Source of the DNA: a virus
Taxonomy: Duplodnaviria > Heunggongvirae > Uroviricota > Caudoviricetes
DNA length: 9,457 nucleotides
Strand: one strand, 5' to 3'
IMG/VR virus record: IMGVR_UViG_2657245660_000018
Both the position numbers and the translations under genes were made by a program. The notes beneath the pieces were generated by a model, which was not told the origin of the DNA, searched no databases, and saw only the letters and a program-made list of their open reading frames with translations. Positions 1-5,524 of the stretch are shown in pieces. Position 1 is the first letter of the stretch, and every line of letters begins with the position of its first letter.

Positions 1-173
1 TGTCAGTTATCATCTTCGGTTACGGTTATCGGCAGAACGCCCTGCCGCTGACAAGAGCTTATTTGCCTGACCAATCTACTCCACATGATAGATAACTATC
101 ATTTATAACATTTCATTGATTAGTCTTTATTTTTCACTATGTTACAAATAACAACTCCGTCAAAAACAGCGAA

Positions 174-197
174 ATTAACTACACCATTAACTACACC
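174..197. repeat. perfect tandem direct repeat, 2 x 12 bp (ATTAACTACACC)
   Basis: Read directly: attaactacacc at 174-185 and again at 186-197. Confidence 0.85.
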
Positions 198-203
198 GTT
201 TCA

Positions 204-240
204 CGAACAATATCGAACAACCACGAACAAAGATCAACAC
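204..240. repeat. helically phased short direct repeats (CGAACAA x3 plus TCAACAC, 10-bp period)
   Basis: CGAACAA at 204-210, 214-220, 224-230 and related TCAACAC at 234-240; the spacing is exactly 10 bp. Confidence 0.75.
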
Positions 241-293
241 GCTTTAACCGTTATCATTTTCCGGCCATCCGTTATGAAGCTGGTGGATGTTCC

Positions 294-396
294 CCGATAT
301 GGGTATCCCCACCTACCTGGCTTTTTTTCCGGTTAAATGTTAATCAGGCTGGTGGCCTTTACATACCCTTGATCACGGTAATGATGATTCAGGTGC
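294..396. repeat. copy 1 of a ~100-bp direct-repeat module (degenerate hairpin plus 83-bp core)
   Basis: Core 314-396 matches 851-933 at 81 of 83 positions. The preceding CCCGATATGG hairpin (294-313) is degenerate in this copy. The copy ends in a second hairpin, TTTTCCCC-agt-GGGGTAAAA, at about 401-420. Confidence 0.8.
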
Positions 397-536
397 GTAC
401 CTTTTCCCCAGTGGGGTAAAAGCTCCAACCGTAACGATGTTCGTTGTGGTTGCCTTGATGGTCTGCGTGGTCATTATGACCATTCAGAATTTGAAGGGTG
501 ATGTTTCCGATCTCCTCAAATTGAGGATTGTGGAAG

Positions 537-549
537 AATCAATGGGTTA
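537..549 (+). promoter_or_regulatory. exact match to IHF core consensus WATCAANNNNTTR (AATCAATGGGTTA)
   Basis: Consensus match read directly. It is part of a recurring AATCAATGGGTTAG unit. Confidence 0.5.
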
Positions 550-590
550 GTCTTACTTTCCCAACATCCCCCAATGGGGGTTTTCGAAAT

Positions 591-603
591 AATCAATGGG
601 TTA
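591..603 (+). promoter_or_regulatory. exact match to IHF core consensus (AATCAATGGGTTA)
   Basis: Second copy of the AATCAATGGGTTAGG unit. It is flanked by the palindrome CCATAGTGCA-attt-TGCACTATGG (606-629). Confidence 0.5.
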
Positions 604-742
604 GGCCATAGTGCAATTTTGCACTATGGAACAATTCCAACCAGTTATCGGCATCAGGCCCACCAGCCAACGCAATTTTGCGCTTTGCTTTAATCTCAGT
701 AAGTTACCGCGCCAATTTCCGCAGTCTGTGGAAATTGGGAAG

Positions 743-755
743 AATCAACGGGTTA
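743..755 (+). promoter_or_regulatory. exact match to IHF core consensus (AATCAACGGGTTA)
   Basis: Third copy of the unit, same orientation. Confidence 0.5.
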
Positions 756-796
756 GGCTGGTTTCCCCGATGTTCGCCGCTGGCGAATTTCGAAAA

Positions 797-809
797 TATC
801 AACCAGTTA
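797..809 (+). promoter_or_regulatory. exact match to IHF core consensus (TATCAACCAGTTA)
   Basis: Related unit. A degenerate fifth copy (TTCCAACCAGTTAT) lies at 635-648. The hairpin TTCGCC-gct-GGCGAA and the palindrome ATTTCGAAAT lie just upstream (774-795). Confidence 0.45.
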
Positions 810-818
810 CCGCCGTAT

Positions 819-933
819 CCCGATATGGTGATCCCCATATCGAGATTGGATACCTGGCTTTTTTTCCGGTTAAACGTTAATCAGGCTGGTGGGCTTTACA
901 TACCCTTGATCACGGTAATGATGATTCAGGTGC
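819..933. repeat. copy 2 of the ~100-bp direct-repeat module (hairpin 819-844 plus 83-bp core 851-933)
   Basis: CCCGATATGG (819-828) pairs with CCATATCGAG (835-844) at 9 of 10 positions. The core is near-identical to 314-396. Confidence 0.8.
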
Positions 934-936
934 TTC

Positions 937-962
937 CCCGATATGGTGATCCCCATATCGGG
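937..962. repeat. inverted repeat / hairpin CCCGATATGG-tgatcc-CCATATCGGG
   Basis: Perfect 10-bp stem with 6-nt loop, 17 nt beyond the capsid-homologue stop codon. Same motif as 819-844. No U-tract follows on the minus strand, so it is not a canonical intrinsic terminator. Confidence 0.75.
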
Positions 963-978
963 ATAGATGCTGGAAAAA

Positions 979-1902
979 TCAGCTTTTCGCCAGAACGGTG
1001 ACGGCCTTATCGAGTTTTTGCCATCCGCAATAGGTGATTGCCCTGAACGCTGTAGCGTCATTCTGGAAAAGGCTAACCGCCCCTGATTCGGTTTTTATTA
1101 CCGCCTCATCAGTTGGGGTTATAACCGTGGCTTCAACGTTAATAATCAGCTTTTGAGCGTCTATCAGCATCATGCGATCCGCCTGTTCGCTCACAATTAC
1201 CGGTATTCTCAAAAGCTCTATCTGCCAGAACTCAGCATCAGTAAGCTGTAAGGCGTTTTCTACGGGCAATATTAGCGACGACGTGGAAAGCGTGTTACCG
1301 TTCGCTATGTGCTTTTTGAAAATCTCTATGAAGTTTTCGGCCTCATCAGCACCATTAAGCACGCCCTCAGGGGATACGCCAGCCACCTCCTGATCACTGG
1401 AAAGAAATTTTTTATCTATTTCTTTCACCGATTCCGATGTGATCAAGTCTCTGATCGCTGAATTTGTACCAGGGGTGCTAAATTTGATTAGCTCGTTATT
1501 CAGCATCACAATAGCGCCAAGTTTGCACAATTTTAGCGCACTTTCGTTTACTTCTCCCTCTTTGACAGGGATTTCTTCGGCTTCTTTAAGCCATTTACTA
1601 CCCTTGCCTGATATTGAATGCAATTTTGCGCCAAACGGAAGATTAAGCGCGCTGCTGATTAGCTTGCCTGGTACAGACTGCGAAAAAATATACTCGCCAA
1701 GCTCTCTTACTATCGGCTCTGCCACCAGCGACGGCATGTTATCCGTAGTCATTCTGTTGACGATGGATTTTTCAAGAAATTTCGATACTGCCGGATCATT
1801 TCTTTTCGTCATCTCTATAGCGTCAGCATGGCTAAATTTACACGATGCCAGCACGCTGGCGGCGCGAACTGCTGACACGCCTTTCATGTTTTTACAGATC
1901 AT
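979..1902 (-). CDS. HK97-fold major capsid protein homologue (307 aa); possibly a capsid-size-redirecting capsid paralogue
   Basis: ATG at 1902 preceded by GGAGGAGGAAG. Two stretches resemble conserved blocks of the HK97-type Phage_capsid family: NSAIRDLITSESVKEIDKKFLSSDQEVAGVSPEGVLNG, and ELLRIPVIVSEQ with a C-terminal AFRAITYCGW. This is recognised by eye, not by search. At 307 aa it is short for a capsid protein with an N-terminal delta domain. Confidence 0.7.
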   Translation of the reverse strand: MICKNMKGVSAVRAASVLASCKFSHADAIEMTKRNDPAVSKFLEKSIVNRMTTDNMPSLVAEPIVRELGEYIFSQSVPGKLISSALNLPFGAKLHSISGKGSKWLKEAEEIPVKEGEVNESALKLCKLGAIVMLNNELIKFSTPGTNSAIRDLITSESVKEIDKKFLSSDQEVAGVSPEGVLNGADEAENFIEIFKKHIANGNTLSTSSLILPVENALQLTDAEFWQIELLRIPVIVSEQADRMMLIDAQKLIINVEATVITPTDEAVIKTESGAVSLFQNDATAFRAITYCGWQKLDKAVTVLAKS

Positions 1903-2053
1903 CTTCTTCCTCCTCCTGGAAGCACGGGTTTAGTGTTTCGTGAAAATATGGCATCAGAACAGCGGCGGCCTGTAACCGTATTTCGGTCGACTGCTGCTTG
2001 TCGTTCATGATTTCCGTGAGTACATCAATAGGGTCTGTGATGTATTCGCTCAT
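1892..2053 (-). CDS. small hypothetical protein (53 aa, acidic C-terminus), not in the supplied ORF track
   Basis: ATG at 2051-2053 with GAGGT 7 nt upstream; translates to MSEYITDPIDVLTEIMNDKQQSTEIRLQAAAVLMPYFHETLNPCFQEEEEDDL. Its 3' end overlaps the capsid-homologue RBS and start. The RLQAAAVLMPY segment loosely recalls the C-terminal motif of some Terminase_2 small subunits. Confidence 0.4.
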   Translation of the reverse strand: MSEYITDPIDVLTEIMNDKQQSTEIRLQAAAVLMPYFHETLNPCFQEEEEDDL

Positions 2054-2064
2054 AGTTCGCTACC

Positions 2065-2553
2065 TCAGTGTTTTAAGTCTGTTGGTGGCTTAGGGATGGG
2101 GAACCGATTTGAGTAGACACTAGCGGCATTGAGTTTTTTAACCTCTTTTTTCCCAATGCTGCCGATCTTGCGGTGGGTGAACTGGGCCAGCTTAAACGCG
2201 GCATCTAAAGCCAGTTTTGGATCTGTGTCCATGTTGTCAATCAGTATCCTGCCCATTGCTTTGATGGGGTCGGGTAGGCCGTTATCCATCATCTCAATGG
2301 TGTTAATTGATGCCCGTTCCGGTGTAACTTTTTCGGTAACTTTCTTTGTAACTTTTTTCGGTTTTGTAACCTGAAAAGTTACATCAGAAGTTACAGCCTT
2401 AAGATACTTTTTCACCTCAGGATCGTTGGATAGCTGCCAGCCTTTAACCCTTGCGGTCTTTTCGCTGTATCCCGCATGTATAGCGGCTTCCGTGGGATTT
2501 GCGCCCCTTGATAACGCATCAGCAAACCGCTTTTTTTTGGTCGTTAATGCCAT
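2065..2553 (-). CDS. terS: terminase small subunit (TerS, Terminase_2-like N-terminal HTH), 162 aa
   Basis: The protein from the internal Met reads MALTTKKKRFADALSRGANPTEAAIHAGYSEKTARVKGWQLSNDPEVKKYLKA, which matches the TerS N-terminal DNA-binding signature (KKxRF...AAIxAGYSEKTA). GAGG lies 8 nt upstream of the ATG at 2551-2553. The track ORF begins at GTG 2694 and would add 47 residues of implausible composition. A low-complexity VTKPKKVTKKVTEKVT repeat follows the HTH. Confidence 0.8.
   Translation of the reverse strand: MALTTKKKRFADALSRGANPTEAAIHAGYSEKTARVKGWQLSNDPEVKKYLKAVTSDVTFQVTKPKKVTKKVTEKVTPERASINTIEMMDNGLPDPIKAMGRILIDNMDTDPKLALDAAFKLAQFTHRKIGSIGKKEVKKLNAASVYSNRFPIPKPPTDLKH
2324..2394. 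repeat. periodic GTAAC / GTTAC array inside terS (candidate pac or TerS-binding site)
   Basis: GTAAC at 2324, 2336, 2348 and 2366 (12, 12 and 18 bp apart), then inverted GTTAC at 2378 and 2390. Includes the palindrome TGTAAC-ctgaaaa-GTTACA. Confidence 0.6.
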
Positions 2554-2577
2554 GCAAAAACCTCGTTTTGAGGGGGT

Positions 2578-2601
2578 GTAACTTTTCGTGTAACTTTTTT
2601 G
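2578..2601. repeat. two more TGTAACTTTT direct repeats (12-bp spacing) in the terS leader
   Basis: tgtaacttttcg at 2578-2589 and tgtaactttttt at 2590-2601, 25 nt upstream of the terS ATG on the minus strand. Confidence 0.6.
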
Positions 2602-2671
2602 AAAAGCAAAATTTTCTACGAATGAGACGGGGGGCGGTGTCCAGGGTGATCGACTTTCCGGCCGGAACACT

Positions 2672-2680
2672 CCCCCCCCC
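2672..2680. repeat. homopolymeric tract, 9 x C (G9 on the coding strand)
   Basis: tccccccccc read directly at 2671-2680, between the stop of the 2684-2845 ORF and terS. It sits immediately after an in-frame ATG (2680-2682) of the extended terS reading frame. Confidence 0.9.
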
Positions 2681-2683
2681 ATG

Positions 2684-2845
2684 TCATTGCTCACCGAGTA
2701 ACGAGATCAGGCCTTCAACTTCATTACTCAGCTTGTTTATTCGTGTCTCAAGCTCTGCGATCTTTTCCATCAATGGCGCTATAGTGTCTCTTGTTTCCTC
2801 GCCAATGGCCTTAATGATGCTTGCCTCGCGTTCTGTGATAGCCAT
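2684..2845 (-). CDS. small hypothetical protein (53 aa, predicted helical / coiled-coil-like), not in the supplied ORF track
   Basis: ATG at 2843-2845 with GGTGAGG 8 nt upstream; translates to MAITEREASIIKAIGEETRDTIAPLMEKIAELETRINKLSNEVEGLISLLGEQ. It starts 3 nt after the stop of the upstream 64-aa gene, and its TGA stop is at 2684-2686. Confidence 0.5.
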   Translation of the reverse strand: MAITEREASIIKAIGEETRDTIAPLMEKIAELETRINKLSNEVEGLISLLGEQ

Positions 2846-2848
2846 TTG

Positions 2849-3043
2849 TTATGCCTCACCTGTTGCAATGCCCAGTCTTTCGCGTAACAGCACACGTGCA
2901 AGATGACCTATTGTTGGCGTGGCGGCTCTGCCGTATATACCAGCTTCATTCATCCGGCGAATAACATCGAATTGAAGTTTTTTAAGCTCGTTTAGGATCT
3001 CGTGATCAATCATCACGGTAGCGCTTTGCTTTATCTCTTCCAC
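2849..3043 (-). CDS. small hypothetical protein (64 aa), first gene of the packaging operon; possibly DNA-binding
   Basis: GTG start at 3041-3043 with a strong AGGAGG 7 nt upstream. An AT-rich putative promoter lies at 3060-3110 (TTGATT ... AATACT on the minus strand). No family recognised. Confidence 0.5.
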   Translation of the reverse strand: MEEIKQSATVMIDHEILNELKKLQFDVIRRMNEAGIYGRAATPTIGHLARVLLRERLGIATGEA

Positions 3044-3130: not shown

Positions 3131-3155
3131 GAAAAAAAGCCGGATTGCTCCGGCT
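3131..3155 (-). terminator. rho-independent terminator (minus-strand transcripts)
   Basis: Stem AGCCGGA (3138-3144) and TCCGGCT (3149-3155) with loop TTGC. On the minus strand it is followed by a U7 tract (plus-strand A-run 3131-3137). It lies 19 nt after the stop of the 3174-3482 gene. Confidence 0.8.
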
Positions 3156-3482: not shown

Positions 3483-3530
3483 TTATTTTTACCCCCCTCG
3501 TTTAAAAAGTTTTAGGTTGTGGTGCACCTC

Positions 3531-3755
3531 CTCTACCTCTTCTACCTAATCATCTTTCAGGTCAGTAATGGCGCGGCTTTCAGATGGGTAGAGGACTTTT
3601 CGTGGCCCTCTACCCATCCTCTACCCGCCCCTCACAAACGACCTTAATCATGGTAGAGGGGGTAGAGGGGTTTTATTAGCCTTCTACCTATCCCTCTACC
3701 CACTTATCATGTTGAATAATATGCGTTTATTTCATTCAGGTAGATGGGGTAGAGG
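3531..3755. repeat. iteron array, candidate replication origin (11 copies of GGTAGAGG / CTCTACC in alternating orientation)
   Basis: CTCTACC at 3531, 3540, 3608, 3619, 3682 and 3694; GGTAGAGG at 3587, 3652, 3661, 3739 (GGTAGAT variant) and 3748. Paired copies are 9-12 bp apart. AT-rich stretches flank the array (3481-3515, 3761-3780). It lies immediately 3' of the primase gene. Confidence 0.75.
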
Positions 3756-3769
3756 GCTTTTACAAAAAA

Positions 3770-5524
3770 TTATAAAAACGCGTCACAATCATCCGTTGTA
3801 ATTGCGTTGGTCTGCGTTACTCCCTTAACTTTTCGCGTAATATATTCATGTCCGTAAACTTTCGCCGCTGGCTTCATGGCCTTGCTGAAATCAGCCACGT
3901 TTAGCGGCTTGCTTCTTCCTGCGTATGCCATAAACGCCAGATAGACGCGGTAAAGGCTGTTTCTGGTCGTGTACTTCACGGAATCGCCACCGCCACCCAT
4001 CATCAGGCCGCGCGCTTCCTCCAGAAAATTCAGGAACTGGCAAAACTCAATAACCGGATCTGTCTGTTGCTTTATCGCCAGTGCTTCATCACCGTCGCGC
4101 TGTTCCAGTAATAAAGCCCGTGCCTTTTCAGGGTCAGCAAAATTAGCCAGCAAGCGGCGGATAATCACAGGGATTTCAGCCGCGACCTTCTCCGGCAAAT
4201 CCTTGTCCTTTTCTGCCTCGCTAACGATATTGTCAAAGCGAAAAATAACCCGACGACGTGCCACGCCTCCGGCCCGTTCGGTGAATATCATCGGGTTGTT
4301 GTTGGTCGCCAGCACCACCGCCCTGATTACCGCCGTGAAACGCTTTTCATATTTCGGGTTAATTTCCACGGGGTCGCCGCCCGTGATTTTCTTGATGCCC
4401 GTTCCTTCGCCTGTATATTTCGGCTGGTCAGCCAGGACGATAAGACGACTCCCGACAACCTGCGCGCGCCCTCCTGCATCATCGAGTGATGTCATTTCAG
4501 CGCTTACCGTGTTCTGTTTCCCTGCCAGAAGGCTGGCTATGTGCGTGAATGTACTTTTACCGCTACCGCCGTCTCCGGTGGCCTCAATAAACATCTGCCA
4601 GTCGTACCGGTTCGCCATAATCATGTACAGCGCGGCACATATACGCATCATCTTGCGCGGGTCTTTTCCGGCTGCGTGATCAAGCCATTTGTGAAAGTTT
4701 GGCGCGTTGTCGCGAATGTTCTCCCCAGGTGCTGGTGGCGTGTACTCAATGCCGTTGTGCGTGGTGATCCAGTTCTCCGGCGTGTGCGGGGAAAATTCCC
4801 CCGTTTTCAGGTCAAGCGCACCATTGGCGAACGGCAGCAAATCGCAGGACGGCTCCCCCATTGGTTCGGCAATAACTTTTAACGCTTCAACGGCGTTATT
4901 GATTACGCGCTTGCTGAAAGTGGCCCTGTGCTCTGAATAGATCGCCACCATTTCGCGGCTAAGTTCCATTGTGCTGACCGGACACCATAACCCGCCGCGC
5001 CATACGTGAACGATTTCACTTTCAGGATGTACGCAAACGCCATCAAAGCGATCGGAAAGCAGCTGAGCGCGTTCACTGTCCGCCATCTGCGAAAGTTGCG
5101 CCTTTTGCTTTACCGGAAGCTCAACGAACAGACCTTCAGAAAGATTCTGGCGCTCACGGGCCAGATATTCGCGCCAGTTCTCCACCTCCTGAACGTGCAT
5201 TCCCTCAGGGTAAAAATTTGCATCCTGTACACCTGCCGCCGCCAGCTTCTGACCAATCGCCTTTATCATTACTGGCGCAAGATATCCGGCCCTGAATATG
5301 CGTACTGATTTTCGGCCTTCCGGCACAATTTGCAGCTTATCCAGTTCGGATAACTGCTGATCCCCAAGCCACACAGGAGGCTCATTATCTCCGGCTATAC
5401 GCGCGTCATGTTCCTGCCACTGTTTTGCATGTGCCCACGCATCACTACCCGCGAAAATAATTACCTCTGTGTCTTTGTGTTTTATTCCGCGTGACTGCTG
5501 TTTTACGTTCGGTGCAAGTTTCAT
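3770..5524 (-). CDS. replicative primase-helicase, P4 / D5 family C-terminal NTPase domain (584 aa)
   Basis: Walker A GDGGSGKST, followed by RLIVLADQP and ITGGDPVEINPKYEK as in the phage/plasmid primase P4-family C-terminal domain. The N-terminal ~250 aa is not assigned. GGGGT lies 6 nt upstream of the ATG, which overlaps the stop of the upstream gene (ATGA at 5521-5524). Confidence 0.85.
   Translation of the reverse strand: MKLAPNVKQQSRGIKHKDTEVIIFAGSDAWAHAKQWQEHDARIAGDNEPPVWLGDQQLSELDKLQIVPEGRKSVRIFRAGYLAPVMIKAIGQKLAAAGVQDANFYPEGMHVQEVENWREYLARERQNLSEGLFVELPVKQKAQLSQMADSERAQLLSDRFDGVCVHPESEIVHVWRGGLWCPVSTMELSREMVAIYSEHRATFSKRVINNAVEALKVIAEPMGEPSCDLLPFANGALDLKTGEFSPHTPENWITTHNGIEYTPPAPGENIRDNAPNFHKWLDHAAGKDPRKMMRICAALYMIMANRYDWQMFIEATGDGGSGKSTFTHIASLLAGKQNTVSAEMTSLDDAGGRAQVVGSRLIVLADQPKYTGEGTGIKKITGGDPVEINPKYEKRFTAVIRAVVLATNNNPMIFTERAGGVARRRVIFRFDNIVSEAEKDKDLPEKVAAEIPVIIRRLLANFADPEKARALLLEQRDGDEALAIKQQTDPVIEFCQFLNFLEEARGLMMGGGGDSVKYTTRNSLYRVYLAFMAYAGRSKPLNVADFSKAMKPAAKVYGHEYITRKVKGVTQTNAITTDDCDAFL

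Follow-up and report, generated by a model that had tools for sequence, protein, structure and literature searches.

Introduction

Gram-negative PICIs of the AlpA type (EcCIIHE3034, EcCICFT073; the 'PICI' model of SatelliteFinder) are islands of ~10 kb that are transcribed in one direction, with an iteron origin after pri and a late operon in which a TerS-type gene is accompanied by a lone capsid homologue. The combination of terS and a lone capsid homologue is listed among the PICI core components and is commoner in Proteobacteria (PMC10085698); 21 of the 29 reference Gram-negative PICIs have a capsid gene (PMC10111431). In EcCICFT073-type PICIs, helper enzymes cut a shared cosN and are directed by an island DNA-recognition protein, Rpp, a 144-153-aa mimic of the TerS DNA-binding domain that needs a phage TerS partner. 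In the capsid-forming PICIs (cf-PICIs; EcCIEDL933, EcCI2), which are AlpA-type satellites of enterobacteria, HK97-fold capsid genes and terS are accompanied by genes for terL, portal, protease, HNH and head-tail connectors. Small capsids are made by PmCI172 (PMC6092414), a Pasteurella multocida PICI with a major capsid homologue and a myovirus helper; because its small-capsid gene was never identified, it is a precedent without a mechanism. The cos-type staphylococcal island SaPIbov5 has a helper-like cos, a helper with HNH and TerS/TerL, and a lone HK97-fold capsid homologue, Ccm, which has a shortened N-terminal domain, comes without portal or protease and is 24% identical to the capsid protein of its helper (PMC8569155).

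The locus described here lies in a window of 9,457 nucleotides (IMG/VR record IMGVR_UViG_2657245660_000018) and forms the late operon, for packaging, of an AlpA-type PICI of 9.5 kb that is inserted between clpS and cspD in Escherichia coli. Its gene layout has already been catalogued for Gram-negative PICIs; the island is a new member with an anatomically ordinary late operon, not a new strategy. An earlier sequence-only reading had proposed an unusual 'minimal' packaging strategy, a framing that is not supported because terS with a lone capsid homologue is a listed core component. The anatomy given in that reading and what it deduced about the capsid N-terminus have stood; it missed the cos site and the TerS ancestry of the second 53-aa ORF. 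The cos site is what this locus adds to the known layout, and its sequence makes lambdoid phages of the Shiga-toxin type the likely helpers.

Island boundaries and backbone

The PICI parts (int, AlpA, primase, iteron origin, terS and capsid homologue) are all minus-strand-directed and lie within att repeats (Table 1); every annotated island gene except one small ORF is on this strand. The core repeat ATAACTATCAT, of which L001 has two copies 9,530 bp apart (0.01 expected by chance), reads on the opposite strand as the att core given for PICIs at cspD-clpS, a reference-PICI site (PMC6092414). Bases 1-106 are core chromosome (the clpS-yljB spacer) found in essentially all E. coli genomes; clpS ends one base to the left of the window, and the island is flanked by clpS and yljB/cspD. 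The direct repeats bound the island with the integrase at one end, the arrangement by which PICIs are defined together with a site unused by prophages. In L001, the motifs of the putative arm-type sites (ATTAACTACACC and CGAACAA) reappear beside the island's int end. The GGTAGARG iterons (ten observed, 0.34 expected) lie downstream of the primase gene, a layout known for Gram-negative PICI origins (PMC6092414). EcCIIHE3034 occupies this att site too (cspD-clpS, core ATGATAGTTAT) and shares the backbone of int, alpA, DUF4222 and D5-primase (PMC6092414).

Table 1. Features of the island, in window coordinates (+, - and. as strand).
Feature	Position	Strand	Remarks
att core repeat ATAACTATCAT, island left end	92..102	+	second copy 9,530 bp away, beyond int
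Probable integrase arm-type sites	174..242	+	ATTAACTACACC x2, CGAACAA x3
Island non-coding tail	293..965	.	repeats, palindromes, hairpin units
Two 88-nt direct repeats in tail	314-401, 851-938
Palindrome CCCGATATGGTGATCCCCATATCGGG in tail	819-846, 937-964		degenerate copy 293-320
Hairpin-plus-GGAAGAATCAATGGGTTAG units in tail	504-604, 738-809
HK97-fold capsid homologue, 307 aa	979..1902	-	no protease or full scaffold domain; island's last gene
53-aa 'mini-TerS' (second 53-aa ORF)	1892..2053	-	paralogue of TerS central helical segment, acidic tail
terS, 162 aa, Terminase_2 family	2065..2553	-	N-terminal HTH; ATG with GAGG upstream; same as RefSeq annotation
Six AAGTTACA motifs, candidate TerS-binding (cosB-like) array	2323..2596	.	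6 in 274 bp, 0.23 expected
cos region	2600..2680	-	G-run ... GGACACCGCCCCCCGT/CTCA ... AGAAAATTTT
53-aa coiled-coil protein (first 53-aa ORF)	2684..2845	-	conserved, dN/dS <= 0.14
64-aa protein, operon's first gene	2849..3043	-	AGGAGG, GTG start; dN/dS 0.08-0.10
Terminator-like hairpin + T-run	3138..3155	-	separates replication genes from packaging operon
Replication origin	3530..3755	.	ten GGTAGARG iterons, two sets around AT-rich core, just 3' of primase gene
Primase/replicase	3770..5524	-	D5_N, DUF5906, Pox_D5 domains
AlpA-family regulator	7148..7372	-	PF05930, E 2e-16
Tyrosine integrase with arm-binding domain	8234..9457	-	family scan

ORF and family scans of the whole att-bounded 9.5 kb detected no terL, portal, protease, tail or lysis gene, in agreement with the earlier claim that large terminase, portal and protease are lacking. 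The same reading had pointed to the left edge as a place where portal or protease genes might continue; with clpS one base outside the window, neither is found there. A 257-aa ORF had no match in PADLOC, NCBIfam or Pfam, and an Rfam scan of the whole window was likewise negative.

The non-coding repeats said to follow the capsid gene are real and were located by repeat search. Part of this tail is common to the tails of other E. coli PICIs with different backbones, and a 57-nt fragment in it resembles phage roi/antirepressor genes. Phage-derived genes adjoining such a repeat-rich tail might be read as a decaying prophage remnant, a functionless combination of genes. We rejected this reading as highly improbable: every gene is intact and shows purifying selection, the element has complete att repeats as well as an integrase, an origin and a cos site, and 220 genomes share the packaging cassette with 95-100% conservation, on two or more backbones.

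The packaging operon

All five ORFs of the proposed operon are on the minus strand, and the GTG at 3043 has AGGAGG 8 nt upstream, as first described. The hairpin between the operon and the replication genes is weak evidence for a boundary because terminator-like hairpins, like promoter-like sites, showed no enrichment over shuffles in the region. The 64-aa ORF matched no family in Pfam, PHROG, NCBIfam or PADLOC; the first 53-aa ORF gave weak coiled-coil matches only, and no PADLOC, NCBIfam or Pfam family.

The TerS with a canonical N-terminal HTH was confirmed by matches to Terminase_2 (PF03592, E 2.7e-10) and phrog_641 (E 3.7e-43, positions 1-156 of 162), with a correction of its start. Homology begins at Met48 of a 209-aa ORF, so the real gene is the 162-aa frame; the upstream 'extension' is non-coding and contains the cos site. 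The protein is 46% identical, across 96% of its length, to the TerS of Stx1a/Stx2c/PPompW phages. This identity is uneven: the HTH region (56%) and the C-terminal part (58%) are more alike than the linker (26%). A full TerS homologue with a conserved C-terminal part sets the island apart from Rpp, with which it shares the logic of redirecting helper enzymes to a shared cosN. The recognition helix is near-identical in the island and helper-type phage proteins, so a distinct site specificity of the island TerS is uncertain.

Profile and alignment evidence identifies the second 53-aa ORF as a conserved duplicate of the core helices of TerS. It matches positions 89-125 of phrog_641 (TerS) with E 3.5e-7, and 0.2% of shuffles score as high as its local alignment with the island TerS; in the islands of Arsenophonus and Serratia, the orthologues likewise match the TerS of their own island. 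BLASTP against the island TerS found no match, the relationship being visible only by PHROG profile and shuffle-controlled local alignment, and the local alignment with the helper-type TerS was not significant (p about 0.14). The ORF has a dN/dS of 0.15-0.18, and its stop overlaps the capsid-homologue start by 11 nt.

The cos site and candidate TerS-binding array

Just upstream of terS, at 2636-2627, lies the cosN-like 10-mer CGCCCCCCGT, which has 9 of the 10 bases of the cohesive end CGCCCCCCCT of the Stx1 phage Lys8385Vzw. The published cos of this phage is CGCCCCCCCT, with cohesive ends of the 3' type (PMC7946995), and the phage record ends in ...GGACACCGCCCCCCCT and starts with CTCACGCAGAG, such that the break falls exactly at the published cohesive end. 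The island cos region aligns over 68-80 nt, with 77-81% identity and centred on CGCCCCCCCT, to the HNH-terS spacer in 77 phage records. Outside this block, the only matches of those phages to island DNA are a part of terS and the 57-nt tail fragment. Long DNA identity between island and phage was rejected: megablast against phages returned the tail fragment only, and blastn added the cos block and part of terS. In the islands of Arsenophonus and Serratia, terS is preceded by the same cos architecture. Since the island 10-mer is one base off that of the phage, and relatives vary either in the 10-mer itself (CGCCCCCAGT in an O26 island) or directly after it, cleavage by the helper enzyme cannot be taken for granted. 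As in SaPIbov5, the island cos is helper-like; it is almost the same as in HNH-cos Stx-type phages and does not resemble that of lambda or phage 80.

Of the AAGTTACA motifs, two fall in the interval from the cos cut site to the terS ATG; the other four are internal to terS, in and next to the codons for the KKVTKKVTEKVT linker. In the helper-type phage, the corresponding position has a cluster of five GTTAAC motifs. The array is a candidate TerS-binding site.

The capsid homologue

The 307-aa protein matches PF05065 with 28.4 bits (cut-off 24.2) and falls narrowly under the cut-off of the stricter TIGR01554 equivalog model (26.3 versus 27.5 bits); we assign it to the HK97 fold. An AlphaFold model is moderately confident (pLDDT 67, with the E-loop region < 50). 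Phmmer against PDB sequences gave no match, and the family profile gave weak matches only, to the Bxb1 and 80alpha capsid proteins, with no sequence-level relationship to Ccm. Residues 7-296 align with residues 291-625 of a 645-aa Peptidase_S78-capsid fusion at 25% identity. Because it aligns only to this part of the fusion, the protein is without the protease and most of the scaffold, with ~50 N-terminal helical residues kept; extensions of about 100 or 290 aa at the N-terminus of more distant relatives are missing. The earlier suggestion that a typical delta domain is lacking therefore holds, as only the C-terminal capsid part of the fusion is represented. Neither a delta/scaffold domain nor a partner scaffold and protease for self-assembly was found.

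The gene is probably functional, judging from its dN/dS (0.16-0.17), its fixed length and synteny, and the likeness of its product to a helper-type capsid protein. The order terS, ~50-aa ORF, capsid, island end is fixed in E. coli, Arsenophonus and Serratia. Scanning GTDB genome contigs with the capsid alignment gave no confirmed loci; the same alignment found only near-identical E. coli islands in IMG/VR.

The sister islands EcCIIHE3034 and EcCICFT073 differ in this module. Instead of a PF05065 HK97-type capsid homologue, a Terminase_2 TerS and a TerS-core mini-protein, they have a 351-aa major capsid protein and a head decoration protein; EcCICFT073 has Rpp and no TerS, and EcCIIHE3034 a gene annotated as small terminase. 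Because the sister EcCIIHE3034 has a different late module, PICI late modules appear to be swapped as units.

SaPIbov5 Ccm offers a close parallel. Both proteins are lone HK97-fold homologues with shortened N-terminal domains and 24-25% identity to a helper capsid protein, which here is the capsid part of the phage group with the same cos and TerS type, our putative helper; the two differ in that they have no sequence homology. By this analogy a Ccm-like capsid-remodelling role is plausible. The second option of the sequence-only reading was a reduced capsid-forming module, in which the 307-aa protein forms an entire island-specific shell with portal, protease and scaffold from the helper. We think this improbable. 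Every feature that distinguishes cf-PICIs is missing: the att-bounded 9.5 kb has no terL, portal, protease, HNH or head-tail adaptor/connector genes of its own, on which a cf-PICI was rejected. The protein is only 14% identical to the cf-PICI protein and lacks the protease and most of the scaffold of its nearest phage relatives, and Ccm alone is unable to form complete capsids (PMC8569155).

A more serious alternative, which we rate as unlikely but worth keeping in view, is that capsid size does not change: island multimers (about five copies) would fill full-size helper heads, and the capsid homologue would be dispensable baggage or a poison subunit that does no more than lower helper yield. 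Multimers are tolerated by cos packaging, and EcCICFT073 is packaged in phage-sized capsids (PMC6092414). Its c1499, the sole Gram-negative PICI capsid homologue to have been deleted, is dispensable for transfer and interference (PMC6092414; PMC10111431); lambda plaque formation did not return to normal in the deletion mutant, and helper-assisted transfer was reported not to need PICI capsid genes (PMC10111431). However, purifying selection and synteny kept across three genera oppose the baggage reading. The EcCICFT073 result may also not transfer, because its late module differs in organization and has a head decoration gene, and PmCI172, likewise Gram-negative and with a capsid homologue, makes small capsids.

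Candidate helpers and proposed mechanism

TerS (46%) and the capsid homologue (25%) independently retrieve the same HNH-cos prophages of Stx1a/Stx2c type, a phage group that encodes HNH, TerS, TerL and the Peptidase_S78-capsid fusion. The cassette is present in 220 of 5,426 E. coli genomes, and its carriers among the matches listed nearly all belong to Shiga-toxin-associated serogroups or are cattle/beef isolates. Most of the best 45 records listed, nearly all of them island carriers, have the cos-like element at two or three places; about 10 of the 45 have no second such place at the threshold used. These matches make HNH-cos lambdoid prophages of Shiga-toxin-producing E. coli the likely helpers of the island.

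Taking the PICI late operon and the helper-type cos together, we favour, with somewhat better than even confidence, a three-step hijack. A helper of the HNH-cos type would induce the island, and the island TerS would bind the AAGTTACA repeats beside the island cos. Through its conserved C-terminal part, TerS would recruit the helper large terminase and HNH nuclease, which would cut the shared cosN-like sequence and package island concatemers. The capsid homologue, predicted to be unable to build or mature a shell alone, would co-assemble with the helper capsid protein, in the way that SaPIbov5 Ccm does with that of phage phi12, and bias assembly towards capsids with too little room for the ~50-kb helper genome. 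The TerS-core copy of 53 aa would probably become part of TerS rings or disturb them, and so either complete the island terminase or inhibit that of the helper.

More speculatively, and we hold this to be rather doubtful, the cassette may act as a two-part hijack of Stx lambdoid phages, the scaffold-less capsid paralogue shrinking shells and the TerS-core copy disturbing the helper terminase ring. If so, the paralogue would be the first Gram-negative, independently evolved counterpart of Ccm, forcing the helper fusion into small shells, and production and spread of Stx phages would be lowered in strains that carry the island.

Most Gram-negative PICIs carry capsid homologues, the sole deletion of one so far being without phenotype. 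This cassette offers a clean test case: the shared cos defines a candidate helper group, the capsid homologue is cut down to the mature-type domain, and the host range has its centre in Shiga-toxin-producing E. coli. Should the helpers prove to be Stx1a/Stx2c-type phages, the yield and transfer of toxin phages could be altered by the island.

Boundaries and gene content of the island

The window matches the chromosomes of O157:H7, O103:H2 and O121 strains over its whole length at 97% identity. In these chromosomes clpS stops one base before window position 1 and the integrase is followed by yljB/cspD; virtually all E. coli genomes contain bases 1-106. The att core ATAACTATCAT (Table) is the reverse complement of the core given for the cspD-clpS PICIs (phage-inducible chromosomal islands) EcCIIHE3034 and EcCI18098. 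The island encodes an arm-binding-domain integrase, AlpA, small ORFs, a DUF4222 protein, a D5-type primase and the packaging operon, and GGTAGARG iterons lie directly downstream of the primase (ten seen versus 0.34 expected). No large terminase, portal, protease, tail or lysis gene was found within the att-bounded 9.5 kb, in agreement with the sequence-only reading, which had described a packaging module devoid of the first three. That reading had left room for portal or protease genes beyond the left edge; clpS alone lies there and, with no portal, protease or terL gene in the 9.5 kb, an ordinary capsid-forming module is excluded. A reduced module of this kind, its other suggestion, is likewise not supported by a 9.5-kb island that has no large terminase, portal or protease.

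Table. Features of the island (window positions)
Feature	Position	Strand	Remarks
att core ATAACTATCAT	92-102		second copy 9,530 bp further on, beyond int
ATTAACTACACC and CGAACAA motifs	174-242		also 18470-18550 of L001, the E. coli locus with flanks
Non-coding tail	293-965		870-bp non-coding stretch
roi/antirepressor-like segment	499-555		57 nt of the tail
307-aa capsid homologue	979-1902	minus	Pfam Phage_capsid, PHROG major-head families
Second 53-aa ORF	1892-2053	minus	TerS PHROG profile match
terS, 162 aa	2065-2553	minus	Terminase_2, phrog_641; RefSeq annotation agrees
AAGTTACA motifs	2323-2596		six
cos site	2600-2680	minus	cosN-like 10-mer at 2636-2627; between first 53-aa ORF and terS
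First 53-aa ORF	2684-2845	minus
64-aa ORF	2849-3043	minus	GTG start, AGGAGG 8 nt upstream
257-aa ORF	7464-8237	minus	between int and alpA

The ATTAACTACACC and CGAACAA motifs recur near both island ends and are probably integrase arm-type binding sites. The 257-aa ORF, in a region of only 31-40% G+C, has no match in Pfam, NCBIfam or PADLOC; it occupies the usual PICI cargo position and could have an accessory or defence role. Strain 2014C-3061 is identical to the window at bases 1-1000 and, like several other strains, at 979-2553. No complete genome exceeds 97% identity to the full window, so the source island is a mosaic with no exact copy in the collection.

In the tail, two 88-nt direct repeats lie 537 bp apart, accompanied by the 26-nt palindrome CCCGATATGGTGATCCCCATATCGGG (two good copies and one degenerate) and several units of a hairpin plus GGAAGAATCAATGGGTTAG; the tail has no Rfam match. 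Parts of it also occur in the tails of three other E. coli PICIs (L008, L009 and L010), which have different integrases and late modules. The roi/antirepressor-like segment is 90-98% identical to part of that gene in Stx1a-type and related lambdoid phages.

A catalogued layout with a different cassette

An ORF scan recovered every gene of the proposed five-gene operon at its predicted coordinates. TerS, with its N-terminal HTH, matches Terminase_2 (E 2.7e-10) and, over its full length, phrog_641 (E 3.7e-43); as homology begins at Met48 of the long ORF, terS was assigned its 162-aa form. All five ORFs are working genes: comparison of E. coli alleles gave dN/dS values of 0.16-0.17 (capsid gene), 0.15-0.18 (second 53-aa ORF), 0.24-0.29 (terS) and ∼ 0.1 or lower (64-aa and first 53-aa ORFs).

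Integrase, regulator, primase-replicase, capsid-morphogenesis protein and small terminase are the five core PICI components, the capsid-morphogenesis component being commoner in Proteobacteria (Moura de Sousa et al., PMC10085698), and 21 of the 29 reference Gram-negative PICIs carry a major capsid gene (PMC10111431). Because terS plus a capsid homologue is thus catalogued PICI architecture, the idea of an unusual strategy was not upheld. EcCIIHE3034 (L011) has its att site and its backbone (int, alpA, primase) in common with the window, but its late module differs, its genes being annotated as major capsid protein, head decoration protein and small terminase (180 aa). The window is therefore a mosaic relative of this reference PICI with another packaging cassette, which suggests that PICI late modules are swapped as units, perhaps matching different helper types.

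The cos site and the probable helper

The 130-bp spacer upstream of terS is 77-81% identical, over 68-80 nt, to the HNH-terS spacer of 77 phage records of the Stx1a, Stx2c and PPompW types; the only other island DNA matched by these phages is part of terS and the 57-nt tail segment. The conserved cos block reads GGACACCGCCCCCCGT/CTCA in the island and GGACACCGCCCCCCCT/CTCA in the phages. The genome record of the Stx1 phage Lys8385Vzw ends exactly in CGCCCCCCCT and starts with CTCACGCAGAG, and its cos site has been published as CGCCCCCCCT with 3' cohesive ends (PMC7946995). Alignment of the island block with this cohesive end yields the cosN-like 10-mer, in which 9/10 bases match. Arsenophonus and Serratia islands show the same architecture upstream of terS: a G-run, about 40 nt, a C-run, TCTCA and then AGAAAAAATT. 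The G-run beside cos varies from G7 to G11 among near-identical islands. In the list of the 45 best-matching records, which come almost entirely from island carriers, most show the cos-like element at two or three places.

All six AAGTTACA motifs cluster near cos (0.23 expected). Two precede the terS ATG and the other four fall within terS, in and next to the part coding for the repetitive KKVTKKVTEKVT linker, so that DNA and peptide repeats coincide. At the corresponding place the helper-type phage instead shows a cluster of five GTTAAC motifs.

TerS (46% identity) and the capsid homologue (23-25%) independently retrieved the same phage group, whose genes encode HNH, TerS, TerL, a 645-aa Peptidase_S78-capsid fusion and portal. 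Between the two TerS proteins, identity falls from 56% in the HTH region to 26% across the linker and rises to 58% in the C-terminal part. On these sequence grounds, the Stx1a/Stx2c/PPompW-type group is the probable helper.

The capsid homologue and a TerS-core mini-protein

The 307-aa protein matches Pfam Phage_capsid at profile positions 47-274 of 280 (28.4 bits versus a cut-off of 24.2, E 1.3e-6) as well as PHROG major-head families, and falls narrowly below the stricter TIGR01554 model (26.3 versus 27.5 bits). Its residues 7-296 align with residues 291-625 of the 645-aa phage fusion (E 1e-19). Its nearest relatives in an exhaustive profile search all had 315-350 aa; more distant ones measured 440-490 aa, with an N-terminus longer by about 100 residues, or 630-680 aa, longer by about 290, the latter being protease-capsid fusions, with domain content shown for one of that size. 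This alignment and the longer relatives indicate that the island protein contains neither the protease nor most of the scaffold found in the phage fusion, supporting the earlier proposal that it has no typical delta domain. About 50 N-terminal helical residues are retained and are among the best conserved of the family.

The second 53-aa ORF hits the TerS PHROG profile at positions 89-125 (E 3.5e-7) and, in a shuffle-controlled local alignment, resembles the segment DP..M..I......L.L.AA.KL..F.H of TerS from its own island. Scores against shuffles were 41 versus 23 ± 4 in E. coli, 57 versus 24 ± 4 in Arsenophonus and 36 versus 23 ± 4 in Serratia. All orthologues have an acidic tail, whereas that of TerS is basic. 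Judged by sequence, this conserved mini-protein is paralogous to the TerS core (central helices); it is present also in the Arsenophonus and Serratia islands and may serve as a subunit or as an inhibitor.

Distribution of the cassette

Of 5,426 complete E. coli genomes, 220 have the terS, 53-aa and capsid genes together, with identities of 95-100%; those listed from the ranking are nearly all of Shiga-toxin-associated serogroups (O157, O26, O103, O111) or cattle/beef isolates. The cassette sits on at least two backbones, a D5-primase island at clpS-cspD and a RepA-helicase island at tRNA-Pro/yejM, and is thus both conserved and mobile. Capsid relatives of 307-322 aa (38-53% identity) were found in Arsenophonus, Serratia and Klebsiella, the first two with the same gene order: int, regulator, primase, small ORFs, terS, a ∼ 50-aa ORF, capsid, island end. 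The Arsenophonus nasoniae relative (L002 1999-10948, CP123498.1) lies inside a prophage, with head-completion genes on one side and tail genes on the other, like the published helper-embedded PICI configuration.

A model for the capsid homologue

The island holds a cos site, a TerS and a capsid homologue tied to one phage group, without the enzymes or other structural parts of these phages. We suggest that the island TerS would bring helper TerL and HNH to the island cos, and that the capsid homologue, unable to assemble or mature alone, would co-assemble with the helper capsid protein and alter shell geometry. Among systems worked out in detail, SaPIbov5 comes closest: this cos island has a helper of the HNH-cos type, and its capsid-size modifier Ccm, with 24% identity to the helper capsid protein and a shorter delta domain, sits in the pentons and cannot form complete capsids alone (PMC8569155). 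Unlike SaPIbov5 in this comparison, our island has its own TerS, and no sequence-level link was found between Ccm and the capsid homologue; the likeness is one of analogy rather than family membership. A Ccm-like role is plausible. By our size-based estimate, a ∼ 50-kb helper genome is about five times as long as the 9.5-kb island genome; small shells with one or two copies, or full heads with about five, are possible.

The main rival explanation is that the capsid homologue is not needed for transfer, as reported for that of EcCICFT073, whose deletion had no effect on interference (Fillol-Salom et al., PMC6092414). PICI major capsid genes have been stated not to be required for transfer (PMC10111431); PmCI172 has a capsid homologue and makes small capsids (PMC6092414). 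To the catalogued architecture we add a cos site, an assignment of helper type, a mini-protein resembling the TerS core and, at the level of domains, the relation of the capsid homologue to a protease-capsid fusion; through these the system makes the function of PICI capsid homologues testable.
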